Below, one piece after another: positions 24,635 to 41,633 of a DNA stretch of 64,000 nucleotides. Numbering within the stretch: the first letter of the stretch is position 1; every line of letters starts with the position of its first letter. The notes beneath the pieces were generated by a model. That model saw nothing but the letters and a program-made list of their open reading frames with translations. It was not told where the DNA came from and made no database searches. Origin of the DNA: Schmidtea polychroa. Taxonomy: Eukaryota. Made by a program: the position numbers and the translations under genes. The stretch is from the NCBI GenBank assembly GCA_044892525.1, contig CM097885.1, positions 72,416,001 through 72,480,000 of the forward strand, given 5' to 3'.

Positions 24635-24724
24635 GTAAGACTAAACCTTTTTCAAATTCTATTTTTACCACATTTCCATAATATTAAGACAACATTAAGT
24701 GTTTAATATTACACTATTCCTACA
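24634..24724 (-). repeat. putative 91-bp 3' LTR of gypsy element 1
   Basis: Minus strand TGTAGGA...TCTTACA (TG..CA ends, 6/7 terminal inverted repeat), preceded by purine tract GGTGGGGG. The 5' LTR is not visible for confirmation. Confidence 0.6.
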
Positions 24725-26202
24725 CCCCCACCAGATTCATCTGAATCTTTAACAACTCTTTTTCTAATATCACCCACGTGTCGCGGCATATCATATCCAT
24801 GACATCTGACTAAAAATTTTGTATTTGATAATGGTTTATTGATATGCCCATCTTTCCATCTTTCTGTGCATTTTTTATTCAAATTCGGTTTTGTCCATAC
24901 TGGGTCACCAGCAGAATATTTTGCTTCGATTATTATCTCTTTTTTATTGTAGCTTGGCAGATTCAGCTTTGGATTATATCTAAATATGGCTCTAGATGGA
25001 CAAATATTATTGTTGTTTGGCGTTTTGTTGAACCAGTACACAGCTTCTGCGATTGTTCCTGAGGACCTAGCTGCTAGCGATTTGATTGTCCGATGGCTGC
25101 GTTCAATGATCCCGTTTCCCGCTCGGCGGTTCACAGTTCTAAATACCAACTCAACATTCAATTTATCTGCTAATCCTTGAAATATTCTAGATCTAAAAGA
25201 TAAGTAATTATCTAATAATATTTCACTTGGAGTTCCTCTTTCATATAGCACTTCATTTAAAGCAATACATATCTCTTCTACATTTTCATTCTTAATTTTC
25301 TTCCAAATTGCATATCTCGATGGTCCACAGACAATAATTGTCAAATATTTATCTTTAGCAAATTTAGCTACATCAATTGCTAAATGGCACCAATTTTCAT
25401 CACAGCTTAGTTCACCTTTTTCCCACGTTACTGGCGCTGGGTCAATTGATAGGCATTGATTACAACTAGCAATTATTTCTGAGATCTCATTATCCACATT
25501 TAGTAGCCCCGCTTCCGATGCTAAGAATCGCATACGATTTTTCCCTACATGGGAGTTCTTATGAATCTCTAATACCACATCTTTCGAGCTTTTTTGATTG
25601 CCTAGAGCTGCGACTTCTTTTTTATTAATCATCCAGTTGGCTGGTACTCTCGTTAAAACATTAGCCTTGTTATTTTTTGTAGATACAAACTCAATGTCCA
25701 TTTTAAGTTCATACTCAATCGCTAGATCTTTTAAAAGCTCCAGCCTTCGTCGTATTAACAACTCTGAATTTGCTTTTGTATGTATTTTTCTGTCGCTTGA
25801 TAATATGCTGTTAACCCAACACACAACTGATTTACTATCGGATTTAATTTTGATGTACTTTAGATTCCATTTAATACATAAATTAATACCCTTCACAATC
25901 GCTTCTAATTCCACCAAATTAATGTGTCCTGAATCATGAGGTTTTCGCAACCAACACGCATTTTCAACCACTGAACCTTCCATTTCTAATACAATTCCAA
26001 TAACGATCGAACTTGCATCGCACCAAATTATGCTTGTCTGATTGCTGGGAACACTCCAAATACCTGACAATGGATCTCTTTCATTTACTTTTTCTAATAA
26101 CCATTTTACTTTGTCAACGATATGATTTTCTATTGAATCATCCCAATTTCCACTGGATAGCCTCTTGATATATGAGCAAGCTGGCCGCAACCACCCAGAC
26201 AC
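24709..26202 (-). CDS. gypsy RNase H-integrase ORF (497 aa)
   Basis: ORF track; RNase H and DDE motifs as above; last RNase H Asp reads Asn (NKANVLTR). Confidence 0.85.
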   Translation of the reverse strand: MSGWLRPACSYIKRLSSGNWDDSIENHIVDKVKWLLEKVNERDPLSGIWSVPSNQTSIIWCDASSIVIGIVLEMEGSVVENACWLRKPHDSGHINLVELEAIVKGINLCIKWNLKYIKIKSDSKSVVCWVNSILSSDRKIHTKANSELLIRRRLELLKDLAIEYELKMDIEFVSTKNNKANVLTRVPANWMINKKEVAALGNQKSSKDVVLEIHKNSHVGKNRMRFLASEAGLLNVDNEISEIIASCNQCLSIDPAPVTWEKGELSCDENWCHLAIDVAKFAKDKYLTIIVCGPSRYAIWKKIKNENVEEICIALNEVLYERGTPSEILLDNYLSFRSRIFQGLADKLNVELVFRTVNRRAGNGIIERSHRTIKSLAARSSGTIAEAVYWFNKTPNNNNICPSRAIFRYNPKLNLPSYNKKEIIIEAKYSAGDPVWTKPNLNKKCTERWKDGHINKPLSNTKFLVRCHGYDMPRHVGDIRKRVVKDSDESGGGVGIV

Positions 26203-27420
26203 AGGATAAATTCCGACTAGCTGACCACATAACGAATACAGCTCTCTTCTTGAAAGCCCTTCATTTAATTCATTTATTCAAATATCGTTCGATCTTTTCC
26301 AATGTACTTCGTTATTCTTTCAAATTACATCAATACCTAATACTCTTACACTGAGAGTATTCTTGACCTTTTCTTCTTCTTTACATATCAAACCAAATTT
26401 ACGCATTTCTGCACTTACTTTACTTGCTTTAACTTTAGATTCATCTACGAATATATCGTCTATGTATGAACTTGTGCTATTCTTGATTGATTCATTGTTG
26501 TTCAATACTTTATTAACAATCTCTGTCATTATCGTTGGCGCGATATTCAATCCAAATCCCATTCTTGTAAGCCATATCTCTTCCCATTAACCATACAAGA
26601 TTGATATCGCCACATGCTTTTATCCACATGTATTTGCATATATGCATCAGATAAATCTAACATTGCAAATTCTTTACTTAAACATCTCCATGATCGTAAT
26701 TTTTCAGAACAAATATCTGCATTCCCACTATATACATCAATATATTTATTGATACTCCTAAGTCAAATACTGGACGCACTTTCGCTTTATTTAACTGAAT
26801 TATACCATAAATTGGTACTGATCCGATCGGTTTGCCCGTTGTTTTCTCGTCGTAATCAACAAGATAGCTGTTAGATATCCAAAAATTCAAGATACGCATC
26901 GTCTCCTGATCCTTACTACAATTATCATAAAAGTTTGAATTTCTATTAGGTAGAAATTTCGGCGGCTCTGACTTCCAATCCCATTTGACAATCCATTTCT
27001 CGTTTTCAAATCTCGCAGAGAAATTTTCCTTCAATATTTCTGACATACTACTACTAGAGCATGCTACGTGACAAGGTGCTTCTTCGCAACCGAATATGGC
27101 TTCTTTATTCAGTCGAACCCCACCAAACCTATTAATAGCATTCACTCCTAAAATTAAATCATAATTGGATACTAGTTTCGGGTATGTTAAACAATCAATA
27201 TTAAATAACTTATCTCCAACCGCTATATCAACTTTACTTCGCTCAGCATATATGATTGAACCATCAAGCATCGCTACCGCAGTCATAGATTTTCGTGGAT
27301 TTCCTTTTACTATAGTGGTAGTGCTGCCCGAATCAACTAAACATGCTTTTACATCACCATTTACTTTTAGAAGTCTCACATATTTACAATTCTTGGGGCC
27401 ACACCCGAGTCCACATGTGT

Positions 27421-27426
27421 GTAGCC
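27421..27426 (+). repeat. 6-bp target site duplication GTAGCC (left)
   Basis: Identical hexamer at 41601-41606. Confidence 0.97.
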
Positions 27427-28222
27427 AGTAGTGTGTATATAGCCCTAACCCAAACAACCCTCCCAACAAAAACATACCTCCATTACGCTTAAACTATTAG
27501 AAAACAACCCAAAACTTATACTTTTATAGTATTTTAACCCTATATTTTTGAAAACAACCACCCTTAATCTTTAAAGCCTCAAACTCAAAAGCTTCAAACT
27601 AAAAAGAGAATAGAAAAGAAAATGGCATTATGAAAAAGTTAGAGGGCTATTTGGGATAGGACTATATACACACTACTTTTGATCGCAATCAAACTCCGGA
27701 GTTGATCTTTATCAGATTATTGATTTTAAATTATATAAATTAAAAAATAAATGAAAAATAGTAAAACTGCTCTGAGGGGAGAGTGGTATTTTTTTTTTCA
27801 CTGTCCCCTCAACAGTTTTTTTGATCCGGATCATTTCAACCTCTTTCGTTTATCAAATCTCTTCTAATATACAAGCTGGCCAGACTCATACATCAGAATC
27901 AATCCGATAATAGCAGCACACCTTATTATTCGCTTCTCGCTCGAATACGATTTCATCGGCGTTTTAAGCGAACGATAATTACCGGTTCGCCACCATCACC
28001 CGTTTCAATAATTTTTTTTTCATATTTATGTTTAAAAAATAAAATAAATAAAATAAAATAAAAATAAATAAAATATACAACTACTTTATAAATCTAAGAT
28101 ACCCACACTATTATTTTCAAATTTTTAATATTATTTTATGTTGAAAAAAAACTAACCACAGTTAGGATTTGAACCACCATCCATTTGAACCACTGTGCCA
28201 GTCTAGCCCACTGCGCTATTAG
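27427..28222 (+). repeat. left terminal inverted repeat (~796 bp)
   Basis: Reverse complement of 40691-41600 apart from substitutions and one ~115-bp indel. Confidence 0.95.
28144..28222 (-). ncRNA. tRNA-like Pol III unit in left TIR
   Basis: Minus strand: A box TAGCGCAGTGG, B-box motifs GGTTCAAATGG and GGTTCAAATCC, then a run of Ts. Not a full cloverleaf. Confidence 0.55.
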
Positions 28223-28343
28223 ACTTTGGATTTTTATTTATAAAATTCTAAAAATTAGACTGTCACATTATGAAAATGAATAATATATAAATTTAAAAAA
28301 TAAAATGAAAACAGGGTATCCAATAAAAAATTTTTTTCTAAAA

Positions 28344-31300
28344 ATGAATTGTAATATTTGTAATAAAGTTTTTAAAAAAAAACTGGATTAATTTCTCACT
28401 TAAAATCGAAAGCTCATTTATTAAAAGAAAATATTCTTAATGATACAAATTCAAAACTTTGTCCTAAATGTAAAGGAAGATTTCTACATTCTGGATATAA
28501 TAAACATTTTGAAAATTGTATTGGGAAAAATAGAGAAATATTTACATGTCCTCATTGTAACTTTTCAACAAAACTAAATTTCTATTATTTAGAACATATA
28601 AAAGAATGTAAAAATAAAAAACAAAATTCTGACGATGAGGAATGTCATTCAGAAGGAGAACCTGATCATGTTGAAAGAGAAAAATATAACTGGGATAATT
28701 TTAATCATATAGATGAATTTCAATTAAAAATTAATGGACCTGCAACTCCTGGAGAATATATAAATAAAAATAAAAAAAATATTAAAATTTCTTTCACTGA
28801 AGCTTTAAAAAATTATAAACCGACAAGGTATAATGTTATAAAATATAAAATTATAATCAAAGCAAAATACTGGCGAGGAGCAGAAGAAAAGACAACACCC
28901 TTAGATGTTGAAATTGGAATACCTTTTAAATATTTATTTTCAACTAAAGGATTTGATAAAACCATCAAAGAAATAATTAAAGCAGCAGAAGCAAAACAAG
29001 AGGAAGTAGAAAATGAATTAGGAGATTCAAACTTAGTATTCAACTCTTTCCAAACTTTAGTGATTGATTATTGGAGAGGATTACCACCCAATCCTAAATC
29101 TTATATTCCTACACCCTTTAAATCTAAAAATGTTATAAACATACAGAATAATGATAACAAATGTTTCGTCTGGTCAATACTTGCACATTTACACCCTCAA
29201 GAATCAAACCCTCAAAGAGTTTCAAAATACAAACAATATGAAAATGAATTAATATTTCCCAAAGGATTCAAACATCCAATGAAACTAGAAGACATTCCAA
29301 AATTTGAAAGTTTAAATAATCTTAAAATTAATATTTATGAACGGGTTAAAGGGAAAAATATTAAAAGTAGAGAAATTATTCCAATTTACATTTCTGATAG
29401 TGGAACCGATAACCCTAGAGAAATATATCTTTTAATCTTGGAACAACAAAATAATCAACATTATGTTTTAATAAAAAACTTTCAAGCTTTTACATCACCA
29501 GAGAATCCAACTAGTGGAGGAGGAACATGTAAAAGATGTCTTCATTATTCAACAACTAAAAACTCTATGATTAAACATACAAGATTTTGTGAAAAAGATG
29601 AACCAGCTTTAATTAACATGCCTACAGATCCCAAGATGAATTTTAAAAACTTTTCAAATTTACTACAAACAGTAGGAGTGGTTTATGGAGACTTTGAATC
29701 TATAAATCGTAAACAAGATTTGGTTAACCAATATTTAAAAATAATAGAAAAAAATAAACTCATGGATTCCTGGAACTCCTCAGGAGAGAAGATGAAACCA
29801 GAGAGGATGAAAGCCTTTCTAAGAAAAAGGAATAAACCTAATAGTGTTAAAAAAACTAAACAATTACCATCTGCTTATAAATTATTATTTAAAAGTAATT
29901 ATCCTGAACTCATAGAATCTAGAGAATATACATTTCGAGGAATTTCAGAAACAGAAGTCTTGAATCATTTTACTAAAAGTATAAATGATCTAGAACATGA
30001 AATATTTAAAGTATTAAAAACAAACTATCCTCAAAATATTTCTAATCAACAACAACAAGAATATGAAAACACTTCCAACTGTTGGATGTGTAAACAACCA
30101 TTTGAAGAGTCTCCGAATATAAAAGTCCTCGATCATGATCATTTAAAAAAGGAAAATAATTATCGAGGAGCAGCTCATAAAAATTGCAATCTTAATTGTC
30201 ATACTCCTAAATTTGTACCTGTTATATTTCATAATCTTTTTGGTTATGACATACATCTATTTATTAAACATTTAGCAGAAAATGCTAAAAACTCTTTCAA
30301 AGTTATAGGACTTACAAAGGAAAAATATAAATCAATTGAATATGGAAAATTAAAATTTATAGACTCGTTAAACTTTCTCCAAATGTCTCTAGATACAGTA
30401 GCAAAAACAATGAAACCAGAAAATTTTAAAATCACTCGAGAATTCTTGGAAAAAAATAATATTCCTCCAGAAGAATATCCTACATGCTTAGCAAAAGGAA
30501 TATATCCTTATGACTATGTTGACTCGTTTGAAAAATATAATGAAACAAGTCTTCCTAGCCAAGAAGATTTCTCTTCACAACTTCAAAAATATCATATTAC
30601 AAATCAAGAATATTCTCGAGCAAATAAAATGTGGGAATTATTCAACTGTAAAACTTTAGGAGAATATACATGTATGTATTTATCCTTGGATGTTTATATT
30701 CTAGCAGATTGCTTTGAAGAATTTACAAAGTCTTCTGTTCTTAAACCTTACAATTATATAACAGCACCCTCTTTAGCTTGGGATACTTTATTATATACCA
30801 TTTGGACTTCAAATATAGAAGAAGGTGATAAAATTATAGATCTTTTAACTAACCTCGATATGTTTAACCAAATTAAAACAAACATTAGAGGAGGAGTCTC
30901 TTCAGTAATGGGGAATAGAGAAATAAAAGCTAGAAATGCAATAACTACTAGCAGAAGACTCTCTAAACACCCTAATGATCCATATATAAAAATTAACAAT
31001 GAGGAATTAAAAGAATTATTAGAAACAATGAAAAATCCTATATTTATACTTTATATAGATGCAACAGCTTTATATTCAGGAATTATGACTCAATATTTAC
31101 CAATGGGTAACTTTCATGAATTATATCCTTCAGAAGAATACCCTGAAGATTCCTCAGAAGAATCCTTAAAAGACCTTATAAAAGAAATACTTTCAACACC
31201 TAAAGATTCTCCAATAGGTTACTTTGTAGAATGTGACTTATTATATCCAGATGATATAAAATCAGGAACAAGATATTTCCCTTTAGCTCCTGTAAGAAGA

Positions 31301-32680
31301 AAGATTAATGTTAACGAACTTTCTGAATGGCAAATCTCACAAGATAAACCTCCAACAATGAAACTTCTTTGTGATCAAACAGATCGAAGGTTTTATCTTT
31401 GTCACTATAGACTCCTCCAATTTTATCTTTCACGAGGTATGATATTAAAAAAAGTTCATAGTGTCATAAGATTTAAACAAGCTCCATTCATGAAAGCTTT
31501 TATCGAGGAGAATATTAGGTGCCAAAACATTGCAAAAAGAGAAGGTAACCTTTTTAAAGATAATAATTATAAACTTTTAAACAATTCAGTCTTTGGGAAA
31601 ACAATGGAGAATGTTGATAAATATACTCATATTGAACTTTTAACTAATACTACCAAAGATATTAAGCGCTATAATCGTATGCTAGGAAAGCCTACATTTA
31701 AAAACGCACAAGTATTTTCTGAAAATCTTACTGCAATAGAACTAAAGAATTTTGAGAAAACATACAACAAACCAATATTTATAGGGTTTTCAATTTTAGA
31801 ACTTTCAAAATTACAAATGTATGAAACATATTATAACATCTTACAACCTATATATGGTTCTAATATATCAATGCATGCAATGGATACAGATTCAATGTTT
31901 TTAACAATAAGAACTCATGATTTACAAAGAGATATAGCCGAAAATCCTATACTTTCAAATTTAATAAATTCATCTGGAGAATTATTTTCGTTTAAAGATG
32001 AAAAACCTTTTACTCCTATAGAAAATGGAATATTTATTCGTTCTAAACAATATTCATACGAAACATTTAGAAACCCTGAATTTATAACTAGATCATTTAT
32101 ATTTAAAACTCCAGAAACAGAAGAAACCATTACACATAGATATCCTATATTTCCTAAAGAACCAGAGGGACAAGAAGAAAAACCTGTAAAGGATAACAGA
32201 TGTAAAGGAATACAGAAATCAGTTGCAAAGAATCTTTCTCATCAAGATTATATAGATACATTGAATCCAAATCATAAAGATAAAATTGATGAAATACATC
32301 AACTTAAAAGTGAAAACCATGATATTCACTTGATAGAATCTCAAAAAGTATCATTATCAAATTATGATGATAAAAGATTCATCCTAAGTGATTTAAAGAC
32401 AACTCTACCTATAGGAAATAATTTAATACCGATAATAAAAAATCTAGAAAAGTTGAATAAGTTATATGATACAAAAATTACTGATCTTGATATTTATAAT
32501 GTTGAAATCATTTATCCCGAGAGAGAAATCGAGAAGCCTTTATATTCTCAAGTTTTTAATCCTATATGTTTAGAACTTAAATATTTTAATACTGATCCTG
32601 AATATATAAAAGGTCTAAGTGATAAAGAATTTAAAGATCATAAATTAATGATTCAAAGGTTGGCTTTCAACGATATTTAA
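28344..32680 (+). CDS. polB: protein-primed family B DNA polymerase with N-terminal zinc fingers, OTU-like protease and endonuclease VII insertion (frameshift at 28374-28382)
   Basis: Exo motifs VYGDFES, FHNLFGYD, IDSLNF and LDVYILAD; Pol motifs YIDATALY, KLLNNSVFGK and MDTDS. The frame is open without a start codon from 28376 to the GTG at 29060; the ATG at 28344 is in another frame. Confidence 0.95.
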
Positions 32681-32758
32681 TTTTTTAATAATAAAATGTC
32701 GACAATTAATTTAAGCAACTATAGCAACCTGATCTACTTTTTTAAAAATACACCCATT

Positions 32759-33367
32759 TTATAAATAAGAATTCTTTAACCATTTCTCTCGTTTAATTTT
32801 TTTAGAATATTCATTAGTTATATCATTAGCGCTTTTTAATCTATTAATATTATTTTTAATATCTTGTATTATTTGATTTGATTTCATTATTTCATCATCA
32901 GTTAAGATTCCATCTTCCAAAGCTTTTAATTGAAATAAAAATAATTTAGAGATTCCAAATTCTATTGATAAACAAACTTCACGATATAAACATTTCTTTT
33001 TAGAAGTATAAGATAATGAAACTATTTCAGTTAGGAAACCATCAGCTACAGAAATACTTCCAAGTATTACTGGTGCAAGAGTAACAACTGGTAAAGTTAT
33101 AGGTAAAATAACTGTTAATATTGCAGATGCAAATCCTAAAGAATAACCTATAACTTTTAAAACTGTATTCCCTTTATTCCATCTATTTTTAATTTTTTTA
33201 TAATGCTTTAATAAATCTTGTAAATGTAAGGTTTCTGATTTAAATTCTTTTACTCTCATAATTTCAAGTTCTGTGGGAGCCGAGACCTTGGAACCTTTGT
33301 GACCTTCGGAATAATATCCTGATGATCTCACTTCTGGGTAAATTTTTTCTTCTCTTACTTCTTCCAT
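32759..33367 (-). CDS. Maverick protein with hydrophobic hairpin (putative membrane protein, 202 aa)
   Basis: VLKVIGYSLGFASAILTVILPITLPVVTLAPVILGSISVA hydrophobic stretch; KALEDGILTDDE tail. Confidence 0.75.
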   Translation of the reverse strand: MEEVREEKIYPEVRSSGYYSEGHKGSKVSAPTELEIMRVKEFKSETLHLQDLLKHYKKIKNRWNKGNTVLKVIGYSLGFASAILTVILPITLPVVTLAPVILGSISVADGFLTEIVSLSYTSKKKCLYREVCLSIEFGISKLFLFQLKALEDGILTDDEIMKSNQIIQDIKNNINRLKSANDITNEYSKKIKREKWLKNSYL

Positions 33368-33375
33368 TTTAATAA

Positions 33376-33687
33376 TTAAAAAAATAAGATTTTATTATCT
33401 GGTACCAATACTCGGATATCAAAAGAAACTCTTGTTGAGAGGATATCTTTATACAATTCTCTCAATGCTTTACGAACTTCATCAACATCAACCTTTTTTT
33501 CATAAAATATTAAATCTATATATTGTACAAGTGTGCTTTTAAAAATAATATTCTTACTTTTAACTTTATGTAGTCCATGTGAATGAGTATTAACATACCA
33601 ATCTCCGTGTGGTAAATCATAACTAGTCATTATAACATCACCCTTTTCAAGCTTACTATTATAATCACATTTCACAAACCATTTCAT
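33376..33687 (-). CDS. Maverick hypothetical protein (103 aa; may be the C-terminal head of the fibre gene)
   Basis: Intact ORF with ATGA overlap on the upstream stop; frame stays open 11 codons upstream of the ATG. Confidence 0.6.
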   Translation of the reverse strand: MKWFVKCDYNSKLEKGDVIMTSYDLPHGDWYVNTHSHGLHKVKSKNIIFKSTLVQYIDLIFYEKKVDVDEVRKALRELYKDILSTRVSFDIRVLVPDNKILFF

Positions 33688-34403
33688 TCTTTCATTATCA
33701 TCATCAAATAAAAATAAGGATCAATAATCTTTACAACCATAAAAACACCCCATTCTTTACTGTTTGTTGTTATTAAACTTGGTTCTATAAAATGTTTATA
33801 TGTATGGGGTAATAATGTTTTATTCTGTTCTAATTCAGCAGCTCTTTTTCTAATACTATGTGTGGTGTTAATGTGTGTTCCATGAGACTCTAAATTTGAA
33901 ATTCTTTTATTAAATGATGTAATCATCTCATTTATTATATTATATATTGTATTAAATTTAGTATTCATAATTTGTTTATCTTTAGAATTTAATATGCTAG
34001 TATTTAACTTTACAACTTGTTCAGTTAACAGACTTTGTAACTTGTCAAATTTATCATTAAATCGTTGTTCGATATTATTAAGCTTTGATTCCATCAAAGA
34101 ATTAACTTTGGATTCTATCAAGGTATCAATTTTTGTTGTTAATGAACTTTCAATTCTTGTTGTTGTTAAATCAGTATAATTTTTAACAACTACCTTTGCT
34201 TCCTCTACATATTTTTTATTAACTGCATCAAAATCATCAGTTGGTAAAGATAATTCTTTTATCTTGTGTCCATTTAAAATTAAATCTCCTTTCATTGAAT
34301 CACCTCTTTCATTAATATATCTCTTTTCTGTAAGAGATATAACATCTTCATCTTTTAATCCATCATTATATAATCCAAACTTATTATAATTAGCATAATT
34401 CAT
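33684..34403 (-). CDS. fibre/spike-like protein (239 aa)
   Basis: RGDSMKGDLILNGHKIKELSLPTDDFDAVNKKYVE resembles the GDxMxGxLxMxxxKIxxLxxPxxxxDAxxKxYV tail-fibre repeat, followed by a heptad-like helical segment. Confidence 0.6.
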   Translation of the reverse strand: MNYANYNKFGLYNDGLKDEDVISLTEKRYINERGDSMKGDLILNGHKIKELSLPTDDFDAVNKKYVEEAKVVVKNYTDLTTTRIESSLTTKIDTLIESKVNSLMESKLNNIEQRFNDKFDKLQSLLTEQVVKLNTSILNSKDKQIMNTKFNTIYNIINEMITSFNKRISNLESHGTHINTTHSIRKRAAELEQNKTLLPHTYKHFIEPSLITTNSKEWGVFMVVKIIDPYFYLMMIMKE

Positions 34404-34440
34404 TTTTATAGCAATAAAAATAAAATCCTTAGACGTCCCT

Positions 34441-35218
34441 CTAGACTTGTTTCAAATGTAAACACATTGAAATCTTTTCCCTATTAAAATTAATTAATTC
34501 CCCATTTTCATCAACAATTCTAAAACTAATATCCATTATATTTTTTCTACATAATGGTAAATAATTTGGGGGGTTCATTCTTTCAACCATTTTATATCCA
34601 ACTCGCACGGTATTAGAAGGAAAGGAATATAAAATATTTGCATGTTTACCATTATTGTATGATCCCATTATACAATCACACTCTATATTTATAGAATTTG
34701 TATTTGTTAATTGTATAATATATTTAGATTTAATAGGTGAAGGCGCTGTTGTTGATGGCATATATGTTTTAACTTCAAAACCTAAAATAGTATGAAAGAA
34801 ACTAGAAGTAGTAAAGTCCAACATTTTTTAAAGTTGCAATACATTTTGAAGTTTGTACATCTGCTTTTATTTCTACATTTCCATTTGTTTTTTTTAAAAT
34901 TGTTTTAGCTAAATCTGTTATTTCATATGATCCTGGTTCGATTGTTATAATGATGAATTCATTCATGGGTGGTGTGTCAGTCGCCTTAAGCATATTAAAT
35001 TTATTATTATTATTATTTATATTAAAAATAGTATTAAAACAGCTAAACCACAAGAGTCCTAATTCATAATTTAAATCTTGATCTAAATTTATTGAATCTT
35101 CAAAATTTATAGTAAAATCTGATTCTTTTGAATTTATTAATAAATTTCTTGAATATTTATGTGACATTATGTTTGCTATTTTTTTTAAATAATCTTCCGG
35201 AAGGTTGCGAAGCTCCAT
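34441..35218 (-). CDS. minor capsid protein (penton, single jelly roll), split by frameshift near 34824
   Basis: N-part: DFTINFEDSINLD, YELGL, ITIEPGSYEITDL. C-part: DFT..FHTILGF, INIECDCIMGSY, ILYSF, ISFRIVDENGELINFNRE. Positioned next to the protease. Confidence 0.85.
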
Positions 35219-35649
35219 TTTAATAGTAGAGATTTTAAATCATTATAAATTTCTTGGATTAAGGAAGTGAAACCTTCTCCTTTGGATTTATTCAATCTAT
35301 ACAAAACATATAAGCTTAAAATACCACATATTTTAGTATTATTAGGTTGAACTTGTAAAGAATTAAAAGTGTAGTCCTTCGAGAGATAGTCTTCAACTTC
35401 TTTAGTAGGTTTAATCCCAAAAGAATCAAAGTATATAGATTTATTATATATACAAACCCAATGAGATCCTTTTTCATTTGAATTTTGATAATTGATTATT
35501 ATATTATTCTCTTTCAGACTCGACAATTCATCATTCATTAATATTTTTATTTTTAAATTTAAATAATTTGCATAATCTTTTAAATCAAAATTTGTTTTTG
35601 CATTTATTCCAAATGTTTTTAAAAAATCTAATATTGAAGGACAAGTCAT
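35185..35649 (-). CDS. adenain-like cysteine maturation protease (154 aa)
   Basis: GSHWVC (His), YFDSFG (Asp), QVQ...ICG (oxyanion Gln and catalytic Cys). Confidence 0.92.
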   Translation of the reverse strand: MTCPSILDFLKTFGINAKTNFDLKDYANYLNLKIKILMNDELSSLKENNIIINYQNSNEKGSHWVCIYNKSIYFDSFGIKPTKEVEDYLSKDYTFNSLQVQPNNTKICGILSLYVLYRLNKSKGEGFTSLIQEIYNDLKSLLLKWSFATFRKII

Positions 35650-35657
35650 TTTGTATT

Positions 35658-36539
35658 TTATAACTTCGTATATTTATTAAATTTATCTTTTGAAATTATT
35701 CCTTGTTTTAACAAATCTTTAGAAATCTTTAAAATATCAGAATCTAAATTATTATGTCCTGCTTTCCTTGCAGATAATAGTTTTCTTAATTCAATAAAAA
35801 GATTGATTGGGTTTGGTTCAACCAATCCCTCACCCTCTGTAACAACATAACCCTTTTCATTTTTATTTAAATAATTCTTTAAATCTTGAATATATTTTGC
35901 TTTAGAACTAGCTCTTATTAATCTTATTAAATTTAAATATTTTTTAATTTCTTCAACATCATCTGAAGAATATCCACAAAGTAATCTATAAAAATCATCT
36001 GTAAATTCAAAGTCTAAATATTCATTATTATAAACATTTTGTGAATGAATACGTGATTTATTTTCTGAATTTGAATATAAAGTAAAGTTTTGTTTATTAA
36101 TTGTTATTATTTGATATCCTTCAGTATTAGTATTAAATGTGGGTCTAATTGAAGGAGGTAAATCATCTCTAATTTTAGGATCAACTTTAAGAGGTTTTGT
36201 TTTGAAAAACATTTCTTCTTCTTCCACATTAGAAATTCTTCTGCGTTTTCTTTGATTTCTTTCAGAATGACTTTCAGGATGGTTTTCACTGGATTCTTTT
36301 TCTTTATCCTGCCACTCTAGTTCTTTTATTTTTTGTTTTTTATCTTCTAACTCTTTAAATTTTGCTTGCTCATTGAAATCTTCCAACTCTTTTATAGCTT
36401 TAATTGTTGGCCCCTGTTGTTGTGTTATTACCTCATTTAATATTATAGATTCAGCATGTTGAGTTGTATTTTTTTTATTATATTTATCTTGTTCTGATTG
36501 TAATTTTTTTAAAAGTGCTAATCTTTCTTCATATACCAT
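35658..36539 (-). CDS. conserved Maverick protein of unknown function (293 aa)
   Basis: Intact ORF; C-terminal LRKLLSARKAGHNNL...LLKQGIIS resembles a recurrent Polinton helical motif; GEG|L candidate cleavage site. Confidence 0.7.
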   Translation of the reverse strand: MVYEERLALLKKLQSEQDKYNKKNTTQHAESIILNEVITQQQGPTIKAIKELEDFNEQAKFKELEDKKQKIKELEWQDKEKESSENHPESHSERNQRKRRRISNVEEEEMFFKTKPLKVDPKIRDDLPPSIRPTFNTNTEGYQIITINKQNFTLYSNSENKSRIHSQNVYNNEYLDFEFTDDFYRLLCGYSSDDVEEIKKYLNLIRLIRASSKAKYIQDLKNYLNKNEKGYVVTEGEGLVEPNPINLFIELRKLLSARKAGHNNLDSDILKISKDLLKQGIISKDKFNKYTKL

Positions 36540-36578
36540 TTTAATGGTATCAAAAATGGTATCATAGTTCGAAGGGCT

Positions 36579-37121
36579 TCAAGTATAATCCTTTACCATT
36601 TTTAGTTTTACAAAGCATCCATTCTTTAAAGATTTACATATTTTTTTTAAATCTTCTTTATCTTTTGAAGATAAAGATTCAGATGTAGAAATTTGATTTT
36701 TTAAAAATTCATTTAAACCTCTACCTTTATAAGGATCAAGATAGAGACCTTTGCCCTGAGACTTTTGCCGACTCCCCTCATATGGATTAAGATAGAGACC
36801 CTTTCCAACGGACACTCCCCCTTTAGCTTGCCCTACCTTCTTCATTGAATTGATTTCAGTTTGTAGTTTTTCTTTTTCTAGGTCTGTCTTTTGAGATTCT
36901 TTAGCTTTTTGAACTGTAGTTGCAATTCCTCCAGCTATTCCAGCAGCACCTGATAAACCAGCAATGATTGCAGGTATTAAAGCAGCTAATGGAAGAACGC
37001 CACCTTCTTTAGCTTCGTGGAGCTTCGCTCTAACTTGTTCTTTTACATGTTTTCCAATAAAATATTTTTTACCATCAATTACTACTGATTTATTTTTATT
37101 TGAATTTATTAATTCTTGCAA
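36579..37121 (-). CDS. putative virion core / membrane-lytic precursor (180 aa)
   Basis: EGG|VLPLAALIPAIIAGLSGAAGIAGGIATTVQKAK Gly/Ala-rich hydrophobic helix; repeated GKG|LYLxPY and GRG|L sites. Confidence 0.7.
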   Translation of the reverse strand: MQELINSNKNKSVVIDGKKYFIGKHVKEQVRAKLHEAKEGGVLPLAALIPAIIAGLSGAAGIAGGIATTVQKAKESQKTDLEKEKLQTEINSMKKVGQAKGGVSVGKGLYLNPYEGSRQKSQGKGLYLDPYKGRGLNEFLKNQISTSESLSSKDKEDLKKICKSLKNGCFVKLKMVKDYT

Positions 37122-37154
37122 AGATTCTTCAGTTGTTATTTTATAATAAATAAA

Positions 37155-37964
37155 ATGGATGTACGAAGTCCAATAATTTGGAAACCAATTTTAAATAGAC
37201 ATAAGAGTAAATTTAATAATAAAGTATTTCCTGATAATTTTAGATTATTAATTGTTGGTTCTTCTGGATGTGGAAAGAATGTACTTGTTTTGAAAATGTT
37301 GCTTGAAGATGATTTTTTAGATTATAATAATTTTATCTTTTACTCTACAACCATAAATCAACCAGAATTACAACTTTTGAAATGTGGATTTGAAAATAAA
37401 TTAACTAAAAAAGCTATAATTGATATTTTTAAAAATCAACATAGATGTCCTGAAGAAGTTTTTCAACCTTGTGATATGGTTGATTGGTATAAGGAAAAGA
37501 TTTTAGAATCAGATATTAGTAATAAAAATGATTATATTTGTGAAGATCAGGGGCAGGAGGCAATTCAAGTTTTATTCTCTAATAAACCTGAAGATGTTTT
37601 ACATTGTGATTTACTTCCTAAAGATAAAAAGAATCTAGTTATATTTGATGATGTTGTCAACATGAAAAATCAAGAGATTCAAAAGAGTTACTTTACACGA
37701 GGTCGACATAATAATTGTAATGTTATTTATATATCTCAAACTTATTATGCTTTAGATAAAAACTCTATAAGAAATAATTCTAATTGTTTTATATTTTTTA
37801 AATTAGATCGCCGTGATAAGAATATGATTTATAATGACTTATTTTCAAATGTTGAACCTGATAAGAATATGTTTGATATGTTTGTTGATAATCATTGGAA
37901 AGAAAAATATAATTATATTTATTTGGATAGAGAAGAAGCTGAAATATGGAAAAGTTTGTTTTAG
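37155..37964 (+). CDS. A32/FtsK-like genome packaging ATPase
   Basis: Walker A GSSGCGKN, Walker B LVIFDD, RGRHNN..YISQ motif; ATG at 37155 in AAAATG context. Confidence 0.95.
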   Translation: MDVRSPIIWKPILNRHKSKFNNKVFPDNFRLLIVGSSGCGKNVLVLKMLLEDDFLDYNNFIFYSTTINQPELQLLKCGFENKLTKKAIIDIFKNQHRCPEEVFQPCDMVDWYKEKILESDISNKNDYICEDQGQEAIQVLFSNKPEDVLHCDLLPKDKKNLVIFDDVVNMKNQEIQKSYFTRGRHNNCNVIYISQTYYALDKNSIRNNSNCFIFFKLDRRDKNMIYNDLFSNVEPDKNMFDMFVDNHWKEKYNYIYLDREEAEIWKSLF

Positions 37965-37975
37965 GGCTTGTCGAC

Positions 37976-39340
37976 TTAAAAATCTGTTTTCTGTAACTCA
38001 TTATTATAAAATCTACCTAATATTTTTTCATTATTTAAATCAATGATGCTATATGTTATTGGAGTTGTATAATTTATTTTATTTATAATAAAAATTTCAT
38101 TTGTCCATTTTGCTGTGCATCCTTTTTCAAATTTATTTTTGTATTTAAATATTCTTACTCGGTCACCAATTTTAAACTTTGGTTTTTCAATAACATCATT
38201 TTCAATATTTACCACTTTAATGGTTTCAGGATTTATGGAAGCATTTAAAGGTGTTGATTTTATAGAACTATGTACATCATTATTATATTCATTTACAATC
38301 TTTTGTAACAATTCATTGTTCCATTTTTGTTTTCCAATAGCAGTAAAATATTTCCACATTTTATTTTTTAATGTTCTATTTAATCTTTCAACTACGACTG
38401 CTTTTCCTTCGTTTTCTGTTGAATATAATTTAATATCATTTTCATTTAAAAACTTTGTAAAAACTTTGTTATAAAATTCTGTTCCTTTATCACACCATAA
38501 ATATTTTGGAATTCTTTGATGTTGTTCAAATATATTTTCAAATGCTTCTGTAATAGAAAATCCTGTTTTATTTTCTAAACATCTTGCAAAAGCAAATCTT
38601 GTATATAAATCTATTACTGTTAAAATTATTTTATATTTTTCAGGGTCTGATGATTTGGTTGGCATAAAGACTAAATCTGCAGACCATGTTTGATCTTTTT
38701 CATGTACTTGAACTTTTAAATATTTTTTATTTTTTCTAAATTCATGGTGTAATTCATTAGCATATTTTATTTCTGATTCTATTGGGGTTAATAAACTAGT
38801 CTTGGATATATTCTCGAGGGATCTTTCAGCATCTGCTTGTTCAATAATCTTTTTATTAGCAACATCTTTTGCCATCCTTGGTAAACTAGCACCTATGAAA
38901 ATCTTACCTTTCATGGCTAATTTAACTAGAGCTCTTTGAATCTTTTCTTGGGTTGATGGATTTTGGATACTATTTAAATCATGTATTAAATTCACATCTG
39001 CAACATGTCTATCTCTAAGATCTTCTGAGTTGTAAGCAATATCATGTTTTAAAGCTGCTTGATCAATTCTATTTATTGGTTCTTCTCCTTGTTTAGGATT
39101 ATTATTTTCATCTAATCTAATATCTAATCTTGTTCCTGGTCCAGTATAGTTGTGTTTAAATAAATGTCTTTCACCTGGATATTTTTCTGTAGTAAAAGGT
39201 TTTAATATTGAAGATATTGTTTTTGAAGATTGTAGATCACCTCCTGTATGTTTTTTAGTTTTTAAATGACTTGCTTTATGGTGTTTTGTAACTTGACAAT
39301 TACAAGTTTCGCATCTCCAATAGGGTTTATTTAAAGACAT
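37976..39340 (-). CDS. zinc finger - PLA2 - retroviral-like DDE integrase fusion (454 aa)
   Basis: CETC..H..H finger; YTGPGT, AALKHDIAY and HVAD (PLA2); WSAD (D222), WCD (D284), VVER (E318); SH3-like FKIGDRVRI tail; no chromodomain. Confidence 0.93.
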   Translation of the reverse strand: MSLNKPYWRCETCNCQVTKHHKASHLKTKKHTGGDLQSSKTISSILKPFTTEKYPGERHLFKHNYTGPGTRLDIRLDENNNPKQGEEPINRIDQAALKHDIAYNSEDLRDRHVADVNLIHDLNSIQNPSTQEKIQRALVKLAMKGKIFIGASLPRMAKDVANKKIIEQADAERSLENISKTSLLTPIESEIKYANELHHEFRKNKKYLKVQVHEKDQTWSADLVFMPTKSSDPEKYKIILTVIDLYTRFAFARCLENKTGFSITEAFENIFEQHQRIPKYLWCDKGTEFYNKVFTKFLNENDIKLYSTENEGKAVVVERLNRTLKNKMWKYFTAIGKQKWNNELLQKIVNEYNNDVHSSIKSTPLNASINPETIKVVNIENDVIEKPKFKIGDRVRIFKYKNKFEKGCTAKWTNEIFIINKINYTTPITYSIIDLNNEKILGRFYNNELQKTDF

Positions 39341-39357
39341 TTTAAAATGTTAAAATA

Positions 39358-40650
39358 TTAAGAATCTCCCCTAACATTTTCGATTATTGAAATCTTTCCA
39401 CCATATAATTTCATTTCTATTTTCTTTTCTTCTAATATTAATGTATATACTTTAGCTTTAAAATTAGAATCCTTTGTTATATGAAGTGTAACATCAACAT
39501 TATTTATGGCTAGGCGATCATCTTGGTCTGAAACATTTATACAAAATATAGAATATAAATTTTTGAAATCTTCTAAACTTAATTGCGGTTCAACTTTGAA
39601 ATCATAACATGTTTCAATATAATTTAGATATGGGAATATGTTTTCATTATTTTCAATATTAAATTCCATTCTATTTATTGGATAATAAGAACTATTTAAT
39701 TGAATTTGGATTGTTTTTAAATTATCAACTCCAATCTTTTGAATAAACAAGTTGTTATTTTTTTGGAAAGATGAATCTACTTCTTTGAATCCAATCAAGA
39801 TATATCTTGGTCGGTATGCTAAATTTGCTACCTTTATAGAATATGTTGAACCCTCTGTCATACTAAATTCACTACAGATTCTATTTAAATAATTTACATT
39901 TATAGACTTGTTGGAATTTAATCTTTCAAGGAGTTTGATTTCGGAATGTGGATTTAATGTCCATTCAGGTATATGCAATTCAAGTGTTGATATTTTTAAT
40001 TTAGCTGTTGTATCTGCAGCTCCATAGAACAATCTTTTATCACCTTCTACTCTATTACAAACTAATTCTATAAAAACATTATGAAGTATACGGTTATAGT
40101 TTTGAATGAATCCAAATAAGTGTTTTAATTTAAAATAACCTTCAAATTTTTTAGATTTATAAAGTTCAGCTCTTTTATAGTAACCATAATTTATATCTAA
40201 ACCATCTTTATCCAAATCTCCTTTATTAACATCAGGAATCCAGCCTGTTAATTCACCATATTCATTTTTATAATCACAACCAGTCAAAATAAAATTTAAC
40301 ATTGTAGAATATACTCCCGGATGCAAAACAGTTTCAATTTCTGATGATCCTAGTTTTAATCTCATGTTGGAGAATAAATTTGGAAAGAAATTCTTTTCTA
40401 GGGTTATATCTTTGTTTGCTTCAATTTCTAATTCGATTTTATAATATAATTTGGCATTACAAATATCTATTGGGTTTGATGTTTGAAGAGATTGAAAAAC
40501 TATATCACCCCTACGATTTAAGTTTGCAATAGATCCTGAAGTTGGGGATATTTTAAGTACATCATTTTTTTTGATTTCATGAGTAAATTCTTTATTATAA
40601 TCAAGATTTAATTTATTTTTTTCTTGAATTTTAAGATTTATATTATTCAT
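39358..40650 (-). CDS. major capsid protein (double jelly roll, 430 aa)
   Basis: Size and position, beta-rich composition, LFSNMRLKLGSSEIE, RPRYILIGF, QIQLNSSYYP and LYSIFCINVS segments typical of Polinton MCP. Confidence 0.88.
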   Translation of the reverse strand: MNNINLKIQEKNKLNLDYNKEFTHEIKKNDVLKISPTSGSIANLNRRGDIVFQSLQTSNPIDICNAKLYYKIELEIEANKDITLEKNFFPNLFSNMRLKLGSSEIETVLHPGVYSTMLNFILTGCDYKNEYGELTGWIPDVNKGDLDKDGLDINYGYYKRAELYKSKKFEGYFKLKHLFGFIQNYNRILHNVFIELVCNRVEGDKRLFYGAADTTAKLKISTLELHIPEWTLNPHSEIKLLERLNSNKSINVNYLNRICSEFSMTEGSTYSIKVANLAYRPRYILIGFKEVDSSFQKNNNLFIQKIGVDNLKTIQIQLNSSYYPINRMEFNIENNENIFPYLNYIETCYDFKVEPQLSLEDFKNLYSIFCINVSDQDDRLAINNVDVTLHITKDSNFKAKVYTLILEEKKIEMKLYGGKISIIENVRGDS

Positions 40651-40690
40651 TTTTATAATAAAAATTTAAAAAATGACAAAAATCTGAAAC

Positions 40691-40769
40691 CTGATAGCGC
40701 AGTGGGCTAGACTGGCACAGTGGTTCAAATGGATAGTGGTTCAAATCCTAACTGTGGTTAGTTTTTTTT
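40691..40769 (+). ncRNA. tRNA-like Pol III unit in right TIR
   Basis: TAGCGCAGTGG (40695), GGTTCAAATGG, GGTTCAAATCC, then T-run from 40762. Confidence 0.55.
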
Positions 40770-41600
40770 CAACATAAAATAATATTAAAAATTTGAAAAT
40801 AATAGTGTCAGTATCTTAGATTTATAAAGTAGTTGTATATTTTATTTATTTTATTTATTTTATTAATTAATTAATTTTTAAACATAAATATGAAAAAAAA
40901 AAATATTGAAACGGGTGTGGTGGCGAACCGGTAATTATCGCCACCAGTCTTTCGAACACCCCCGGATCGATTCTATAATGTGCACATTTATTTTTCAGTT
41001 GTTTTCGAACCTCTTTCGGATTCACTTTCGAATTCATTTGTACTTTCGAGCAGCACGCTTAAAACGCCGATGAAATCGTATTCGAGGGAGAAGCGAATAA
41101 TAAGGTGTGCTGCTATTATCGGATTGATTCTGATGTATGAGTCTGGCCAGCTTGTATATTAGAAGAGATTTGATAAACGAAAGAGGTTGAAATGATCCGG
41201 ATCAAAAAAACCGTTGAGGGGACAGTGAAAAAAAAAAATACCACTCTCTTCTCAGAGCAGTTTTACTATTTTTCATTTATTTTTTAATTTATATAATTTA
41301 AAATCAATAATCTGATAAAGATCAACTCCGGAGTTTGATTGCGATCAAAAGTAGTGTGTATATAGCCCTATCCCAAATAGCCCTCTAACTTTTTCATAAT
41401 GCCATTTTCTTTTCTATTCTCTTTTTAGTTTGAAGCTTTTGAGTTTGAGGCTTTAAAGATTAAGGGTGGTTGTTTTCAAAAATATAGGGTTAAAATACTA
41501 TAAATGTATAAGTTTTGGGTTGTTTTCTAATGGTTTAAGCGTAATGGAGGTATGTTTTTGTTGGGAGGGTTGTGTTGGTTGGGTATATATACACACTACT
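40691..41600 (-). repeat. right terminal inverted repeat (~910 bp)
   Basis: Reverse complement of the left TIR, with extra segment 40941-41055. Confidence 0.95.
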
Positions 41601-41633
41601 GTAGCCCCTTGATCTTTTTCCGACTTGTAAAAC
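41601..41633 (-). mobile_element. TSD plus upstream continuation of gypsy element 1 (runs into N gap)
   Basis: Removing the Maverick and one TSD restores an open frame FTSRKKIKGLHTCGLGCGPKNCKYVRLL. Confidence 0.7.

Follow-up and report, generated by a model that had tools for sequence, protein, structure and literature searches.

Putative tRNA-derived, Pol III-type units as an optional module in the terminal inverted repeats of one Polinton group in Schmidtea polychroa

Why would a virus-like mobile element carry a tRNA-like Pol III gene at the inner edge of each of its terminal inverted repeats (TIRs)? The question is raised by a 64,000-nt stretch of the Schmidtea polychroa genome (contig CM097885.1, positions 72,416,001 to 72,480,000; the window), in which a first-pass annotation had proposed such genes, encoding a VA-RNA-like small RNA or acting as insulators. 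The element in question occupies positions 27427-41600 (14.2 kb) and has AGTAGT termini and a 6-bp target duplication, with the hexamer at 27421-27426 repeated at 41601-41606. The left TIR (27427-28235, + strand, approximately 810 bp) begins with the AGTAGT terminus and is followed by fainter homology up to about 28310, while the right TIR (40678-41600, - strand, approximately 920 bp) includes 113 bp without a counterpart on the left; the arms match over 27973-28235 and 40678-40940. Between them, Pfam matches identified a family B DNA polymerase (29279-32680 from the first ATG, +; PF03175, E 5.7e-15), an A32-like packaging ATPase (37155-37964, +; PF04665, E 2e-08), an rve integrase (37976-39340, -; PF00665) with a fused PLA2-like domain as its N-terminal part (PF08398), and a double-jelly-roll major capsid protein (39358-40650, -; PF21738, E 9.6e-26). 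A further ORF without a Pfam match (35185-35649, -) is, as we presume from His/Asp/Cys motifs recognized by eye, probably an adenain-type cysteine protease. Both the gene content (polymerase, integrase, ATPase, and capsid) and the structure (TIRs, AGTAGT-type termini, and 6-bp target duplication) identify the element as a Polinton/Maverick.

Several additional features of this Polinton should be noted. It sits within or next to what remains of an LTR retrotransposon, in which protease-like, RNase H, and integrase pieces are recognizable (24709-27475, -). Most of the Polinton ORFs in the window have an A run before their start codon, often as TAAAATG or TAAAAATG, and these contexts recall poxvirus-type late promoters. 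Furthermore, the terminus (27427-27446) has an inner inverted copy at 27659-27677, and end modules of the window and of seven other loci (L061, L062, L074, L081, L082, L085, and L086) carry an inverted terminus copy about 230-270 bp inward; the start of the TIR is a self-contained mini inverted repeat that could fold back or move alone. A GC-richer, well-conserved part of the TIR (40910-41260) contains several TTCGA words, 1 B-box-like motif on the minus strand (41011), and local folds at z about -3.

At the inner edge of each TIR lies a Pol III-type unit, here termed unit 1, which extends over 28144-28218 on the minus strand (A box 28207-28218, T8 28144-28151) and over 40695-40769 on the plus strand (A box 40695-40706, T8 40762-40769). 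The two copies are both directed outward and differ by a single base from A box to terminator. The A box, B-box motifs, oligo-T, orientation, and location described by the first-pass annotation were thus all found in both TIRs. The two tandem B boxes of that description require a distinction: while GGTTCAAAT indeed occurs twice per unit (40722-40730 and 40738-40746 on the right, +; 28183-28191 and 28167-28175 on the left, -), only the second occurrence has the full GGTTCRANNC form (40738-40747 and 28166-28175) and lies at tRNA distance from the A box, whereas the first is an extra B-like box without the conserved last C (40722-40730 and 28183-28191). In the right unit, the T8 follows 14 nt past the B box and no T run interrupts the unit, from which an RNA of approximately 80 nt is predicted. 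Single B boxes were not above chance in the window (2 observed vs 1.52 expected), and the composite of A box, B box, and T run matched only the 2 unit copies, vs 0.15 matches per shuffled window. On the right, the A box and the capsid start codon are arranged head to head, 45 bp apart; on the left, an ATG lies 52 bp away.

Internal A and B boxes at tRNA spacing, with an oligo-T terminator past the B box and none inside, constitute the layout of a type 2 Pol III gene, and to this extent the description as a tRNA-like Pol III gene stands. However, no tRNA is detectable in unit 1, neither by ARAGORN nor by Rfam tRNA searches at E values up to 10, in agreement with the earlier remark that no cloverleaf can be formed. 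Evidence for the origin of the unit came from paralogs: in many Polinton copies, a block of 500-750 bp, absent from the window copy, separates the capsid start from the TIR and comprises 2 further units (units 2 and 3) with the same layout and direction as unit 1; in the single block that was read through completely, there was no fourth unit. Unit 2 has 1,362 exact genome sites, with all 30 examined in Polinton context, and its Rfam tRNA score of 32.4 bits exceeds the cut-off of 29, which supports a tRNA origin of the whole set. When the units were aligned on their boxes, the A boxes shared 9-12 of 12 positions and the B boxes 8-10 of 10, compared to only 4-12 of 24 for the interior, although the agreement of the boxes is to some extent a product of the method, as a box scan had served to find units 2 and 3. 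A comparison restricted to 4 potential parent isotypes (Lys, Tyr, Cys, and Arg), with the boxes kept fixed, placed unit 1 weakly nearest to Lys (p 0.026) and unit 2 near both Lys (0/500) and Cys (0.03), which does not single out a parent isotype. Units 2 and 3 were seen at the capsid end only, and the spacing between units is 231-244 bp. At one locus (L261), the interval between units 2 and 1 contains an outward-directed short ORF of about 70 codons that is rich in Lys, Glu, and Arg.

Host tRNA genes are arranged in long tandem arrays, each made up of a single isotype, whose periods are 253-424 bp (in assembly G000 at C1:269.25 Mb, C4:76.66 Mb, C140, C333, C356, and C474), and the Cys pattern alone has about 1,000 matches. 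The resemblance between these periods and the unit spacing suits a reading in which a tRNA gene was captured once, was tandemly amplified, and now decays as a functionless passenger on a successful end module; the weakened B box and internal T4 runs of unit 3 point in the same direction. However, the flanks of the units share nothing with the tested host arrays beyond short AT-rich matches, and for this and further reasons given below we consider such a neutral relic rather unlikely.

Two mutually exclusive exact patterns of unit 1 matched 561 and 1,163 genome sites, giving a copy number of at least 1,724 as their sum. Such abundance, together with a degenerate tRNA bearing A and B boxes as is usual for SINE heads, might suggest that the unit is the head of a host SINE inserted into the TIR, and a high-copy SINE head found mostly outside Mavericks had been named as an argument against the first-pass proposal. 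This alternative is largely refuted by the context of the copies. The first 30 listed sites of a 21-mer pattern, 20 variant-pattern sites hand-picked from the first 100, and the best 30 of 40 scored BLAST matches were all located within Polinton sequence. As all 50 of the pattern sites checked for unit 1 (as well as the 30 for unit 2) were in Polinton context, a free SINE is very unlikely. Furthermore, among the first 100 sites of the 561-site pattern, neighbor pairs 8-20 kb apart were outward-facing in 18 cases vs 1 inward-facing case. Around unit 1, we found no SINE body, tail, or target duplication of its own, and unlike tRNA-derived SINE heads the unit does not disperse independently. We consequently regard a SINE origin as scarcely credible. 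In some TIRs, a module of about 231 bp that contains unit 1 (equivalent to 40609-40840 of the window) is tandemly duplicated or triplicated (L012, L016, L017, L018, L023, and L030).

The comparison of copies allowed us to distinguish what is kept from what varies. From a sample of 90 of 126 scored capsid matches, unit 1 was retrieved by its downstream flank rather than by its boxes, resulting in 77 copies from 62 loci, 67 of them distinct. Polymorphisms affect 3 of 31 box positions compared to 27 of 47 positions in the rest of the unit (Fisher p 1.6e-5, an overstated value, as the polymorphisms stem from few lineages), and the difference holds for G/C positions (1/15 vs 14/22); one of the 3 box changes is an A/G exchange where the A box calls for a purine. 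The boxes hence resemble second codon positions of the capsid gene (6/80 polymorphic), while the interior resembles third positions (30/80). A decaying relic should lose boxes and interior alike, so that the sparing of the boxes argues against it. In its favor, however, the adjacent TIR DNA is as constant: with 34 of 390 positions polymorphic at 40900-41290, the boxes are no more conserved than the outer TIR, and their constancy may partly reflect TIR-wide homogenization.

Spacing is maintained as well. The distance between A box and last B box amounts to 43-45 for 79 of the 85 distinct unit-1 bodies, 45 for 14 of the 16 unit-2 bodies, and 44-45 for 15 of the 18 unit-3 bodies, with 45 also found in 2 intronless host tRNAs; the distance from B box to T run is 22-24 in 79 of 85 unit-1 bodies. 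Moreover, 3 divergent alleles have a new interior and lack the first B box, yet keep the second B box, the spacing, and the T run. The persistence of spacing and terminator through a complete turnover of the interior again speaks against a mere relic. It also follows from these alleles, which carry one box at the normal distance, that the double B box is not a required feature, even though the B-like box is doubled or tripled in 76 of 85 distinct unit-1 bodies.

Conservation does not extend to RNA structure. The stems proposed by the first-pass annotation (TAGC/GCTA, CACAGT/ACTGTG, and GGAT/ATCC) can be drawn, but just 36, 6, and 22, respectively, of the 67 distinct copies preserve them unbroken; the boxes that it described, in contrast, vary less than the interior. 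An AACC/GGTT terminal stem is present in 16 of 67 copies, a count that is distorted by an indel and was set aside. The window copies fold like shuffled sequences (z 0.23, -0.04, and -0.87), z values of 47 haplotypes scatter about 0 (from -2.5 to +1.1), and plus-strand windows starting at 40640-40800 range from -0.2 to +1.4. The 5′ leader and 3′ tail pair at -4.8 kcal/mol compared to -2.9 kcal/mol with shuffled tails, none of 200 shuffles being as good; leader-tail covariation was absent (permutation p 0.145), and the weak complementarity of the ends is probably a remnant of the acceptor stem.

These results bear directly on the possibility that the RNA itself is active, with units serving as small-RNA genes whose abundant 5′-triphosphate, oligo-U RNAs titrate La, Dicer/Argonaute, or PIWI factors. 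The presence of A box, B box, and terminator in unit 1 with no T run inside, the clusters of up to 3 paralogs, the more than 1,700 unit-1 templates, and the leader-tail pairing are all consistent with such decoys. Against them stand the lack of a fold above shuffles, the breakage of the proposed stems in half or most of the copies, the absent covariation, and the free replacement of the interior in divergent alleles. The adenovirus lineage is related to Polintons, and its genome-internal VA RNAs of about 160 nt are strongly folded, with terminal, central, and apical stems and a conserved GGGU/ACCC pair. The predicted unit-1 RNA has about half this length, folds like its shuffles, had no Rfam match, and is duplicated in TIRs, and neither motif of the GGGU/ACCC pair occurs in 40681-40770. 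What the two share is the type 2 internal promoter, which according to the available part of PMC8223928 is a property of VA genes; a structured VA-like RNA is not supported. A closer parallel is offered by the TMERs of MHV68, which the accessible sections of PMC8223928 and PMC4337559 describe as tRNA-like type 2 Pol III units that a virus carries in a cluster and whose boxes are altered, the alteration being a triplicated A box (PMC8223928, in part), and of which a single tRNA-like copy restores a viral phenotype (PMC4337559, in part). However, TMERs have retained a fold like that of a tRNA, with miRNA hairpins behind it (PMC8223928, same sections), whereas unit 1 has no tRNA fold, ends at the T8 14 nt past the B box, is followed by no hairpin signal in the folding windows mentioned above, and is located in the TIRs of an integrating element. 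Taken together, we consider an RNA decoy unlikely.

Contigs of 4 sequencing runs, guessed to be RNA, were also compared with 39900-40825. Those of one run (X1, organism A; may be DNA) cover 40508-40791, including the unit and approximately 190 bases upstream, and almost nothing of the capsid body, a coverage that gives no ends, strand, or level and on which we base no conclusion. Three runs from organisms B and C (X6, X10, and X14) yielded short AT-rich matches only, leaving 40706-40736 uncovered, and say nothing about conservation. In viral contigs, the capsid search gave no relative and the double-B pattern 0 matches; 11 metagenome loci of 1-9 kb, in which no TIR was identified, contained no unit; and 36 homologous capsid proteins were found as proteins without DNA context.

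How essential is the unit to its host element? Unit 1 was present at 67 of the 90 capsid-anchored loci and absent at 23 (one partly masked and two truncated), the latter carrying mostly other end modules of 230-370 bp behind capsids that are 86-96% identical. Neither 4 complete short-TIR sisters nor 4 incomplete or chimeric elements contained a unit when one mismatch was allowed. The existence of close sisters without it indicates that the unit is dispensable; it is an optional end module and not a core part of Polintons. The first-pass annotation had cited boxes that are not conserved in related elements as an argument against its proposal, and these sisters bear this out by half. On a tree of 28 capsid genes (31 rows minus 3 that were masked or truncated), 4-6 changes are required to explain where the unit is present, and a grouping of the unit-less elements into one clade is rejected (p-AU 2e-11), implying that end modules were repeatedly swapped or lost. 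Both the continued spread of unit-less sisters and the 4 or more changes on the tree suit a relic. Of the 66 capsid-anchored loci that gave a scan match, 52 have their first unit at a distance of 44-67 bp from the capsid ATG.

More than 10 different sequences follow AGTAGT at loci with capsids that are 84-99% alike (L061-L090 and L222-L281), which suggests that end modules are often exchanged. In one Polinton, probably of recombinant origin, the left and right ends belong to different terminus types (L131-L132, G000:C1:226892700-226909699), and about 460 bp beyond the left end there is a host gene of tRNA-Tyr type. A tRNA-like match next to one sister element was rejected as a unit candidate, being an intron-bearing host gene of tRNA-Tyr type that lies beyond the terminus. 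Four regions of a TBP-bearing Maverick lineage (one complete, two partial, and one without a detected Polinton gene) and 2 gene-less foldback elements contained no unit in a scan that allowed one mismatch, misses unit 3, and could overlook weaker units.

Fixed boxes, spacing, and terminator around a free interior would be the pattern of a promoter kept for occupancy. Our leading, albeit tentative, explanation is therefore that a degenerate tRNA gene in both Polinton ends has been retained as a Pol III promoter that acts via DNA-bound proteins. TFIIIC would bind the boxes and load TFIIIB onto AT-rich DNA upstream, where the capsid gene begins on the right and the polymerase-side ORFs begin on the left, and Pol III would produce a transcript of about 80 nt that has no structure and terminates in U. 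The resulting open-chromatin or barrier site would shield or tune the Pol II genes on the inward side in integrated copies. We rank this DNA-level role first because of the constraint on boxes, spacing, and terminator, the unit's position at 44-67 bp from the capsid ATG, and the literature on TFIIIB and barriers: in the consulted portion of PMC3395662, the DNA to which TFIIIC brings TFIIIB is an AT-rich stretch of about 50 bp upstream of the start site, and yeast tDNAs and TFIIIC sites serve as barriers and insulators. The insulator idea of the first-pass annotation fits this pattern, as judged from sequence. The retention of both A box and terminator points to real transcription and leaves room for a role of the RNA; the neutral relic and the RNA decoy follow in this order, ahead of mere TFIIIC binding and the SINE.

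Binding alone was considered because S. pombe IR-L/IR-R, like the Polinton ends, consist of inverted-repeat B boxes that bracket a domain of comparable size (14-20 kb in the two systems; 20 kb for S. pombe in the excerpt of PMC7474672). A further point of comparison with tDNA and TFIIIC barriers is an activity independent of RNA structure (PMC3395662 and PMC7474672, in part). The units could then represent extra-TFIIIC-type sites, at which TFIIIC on the B boxes pairs or anchors the ends without Pol III transcription, in line with the doubled or tripled B-like box and the tandem duplication of entire modules in some copies. However, A box, spacing, and terminator, which should be unneeded for mere binding, are also kept, the last C that is otherwise conserved is absent from the extra box, which is itself missing from divergent alleles, and units 2 and 3 were observed at the capsid end only. 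While IR-L/IR-R recruit TFIIIC without Pol III and favor silencing inside the domain, at least in the part of PMC7474672 available, the Polinton units are full A-B-terminator units on a mobile virus-like element. We therefore hold binding without transcription to be quite improbable, and, in view of the same S. pombe result, any chromatin effect of the units could go in either direction, which weakens the promoter-occupancy explanation that we prefer.

It is already known that intact tRNAs occur in polinton-like viruses and that viruses can have tRNA-like Pol III genes. Polinton-like viruses, virophages, and MELD viruses share with the present element the presence of tRNA-derived DNA in Polinton relatives, including 558 Rfam tRNA matches in a set of polinton-like viruses and virophages, 10 ARAGORN tRNAs in cryptophyte polinton-like viruses (PMC12220804, in part), and tRNA genes flagged in MELD viruses (PMC8502044, in part). 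In contrast to unit 1, which is invisible to both programs, these tRNAs are detectable by Rfam or ARAGORN and were proposed to aid translation (same excerpts). The accessible text of PMC8097293 mentions neither tRNA nor Pol III, and full-text literature, exclusive of subscription papers and repeat libraries, yielded no paper on such units, nor any regulatory RNA gene, in Polinton TIRs, nor did full-text literature on Pol III promoters in DNA-transposon TIRs.

The module is thus real and optional, appears to be selectively shaped, tRNA-derived, and of Pol III type, and resides in the ends of one Polinton group. A broader proposal, possible but doubtful, is that in an animal Polinton lineage domesticated host tRNA genes serve as an exchangeable Pol III module at either end, which is transcribed from thousands of copies and counters silencing by way of insulators or decoy RNAs. 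If true, this would be an independent, tRNA-born parallel to the adenovirus VA genes and may help to explain why approximately three quarters of the capsid-anchored sample bear a unit. Given that ARAGORN fails to detect the units and Rfam mostly does as well, other Polintons could contain similar modules that went unnoticed. The units bear on the question of what keeps the genes of integrated Polintons expressible despite host silencing, for which near-identical capsid genes with and without the module, in hundreds of copies, provide a natural comparison of chromatin and expression.
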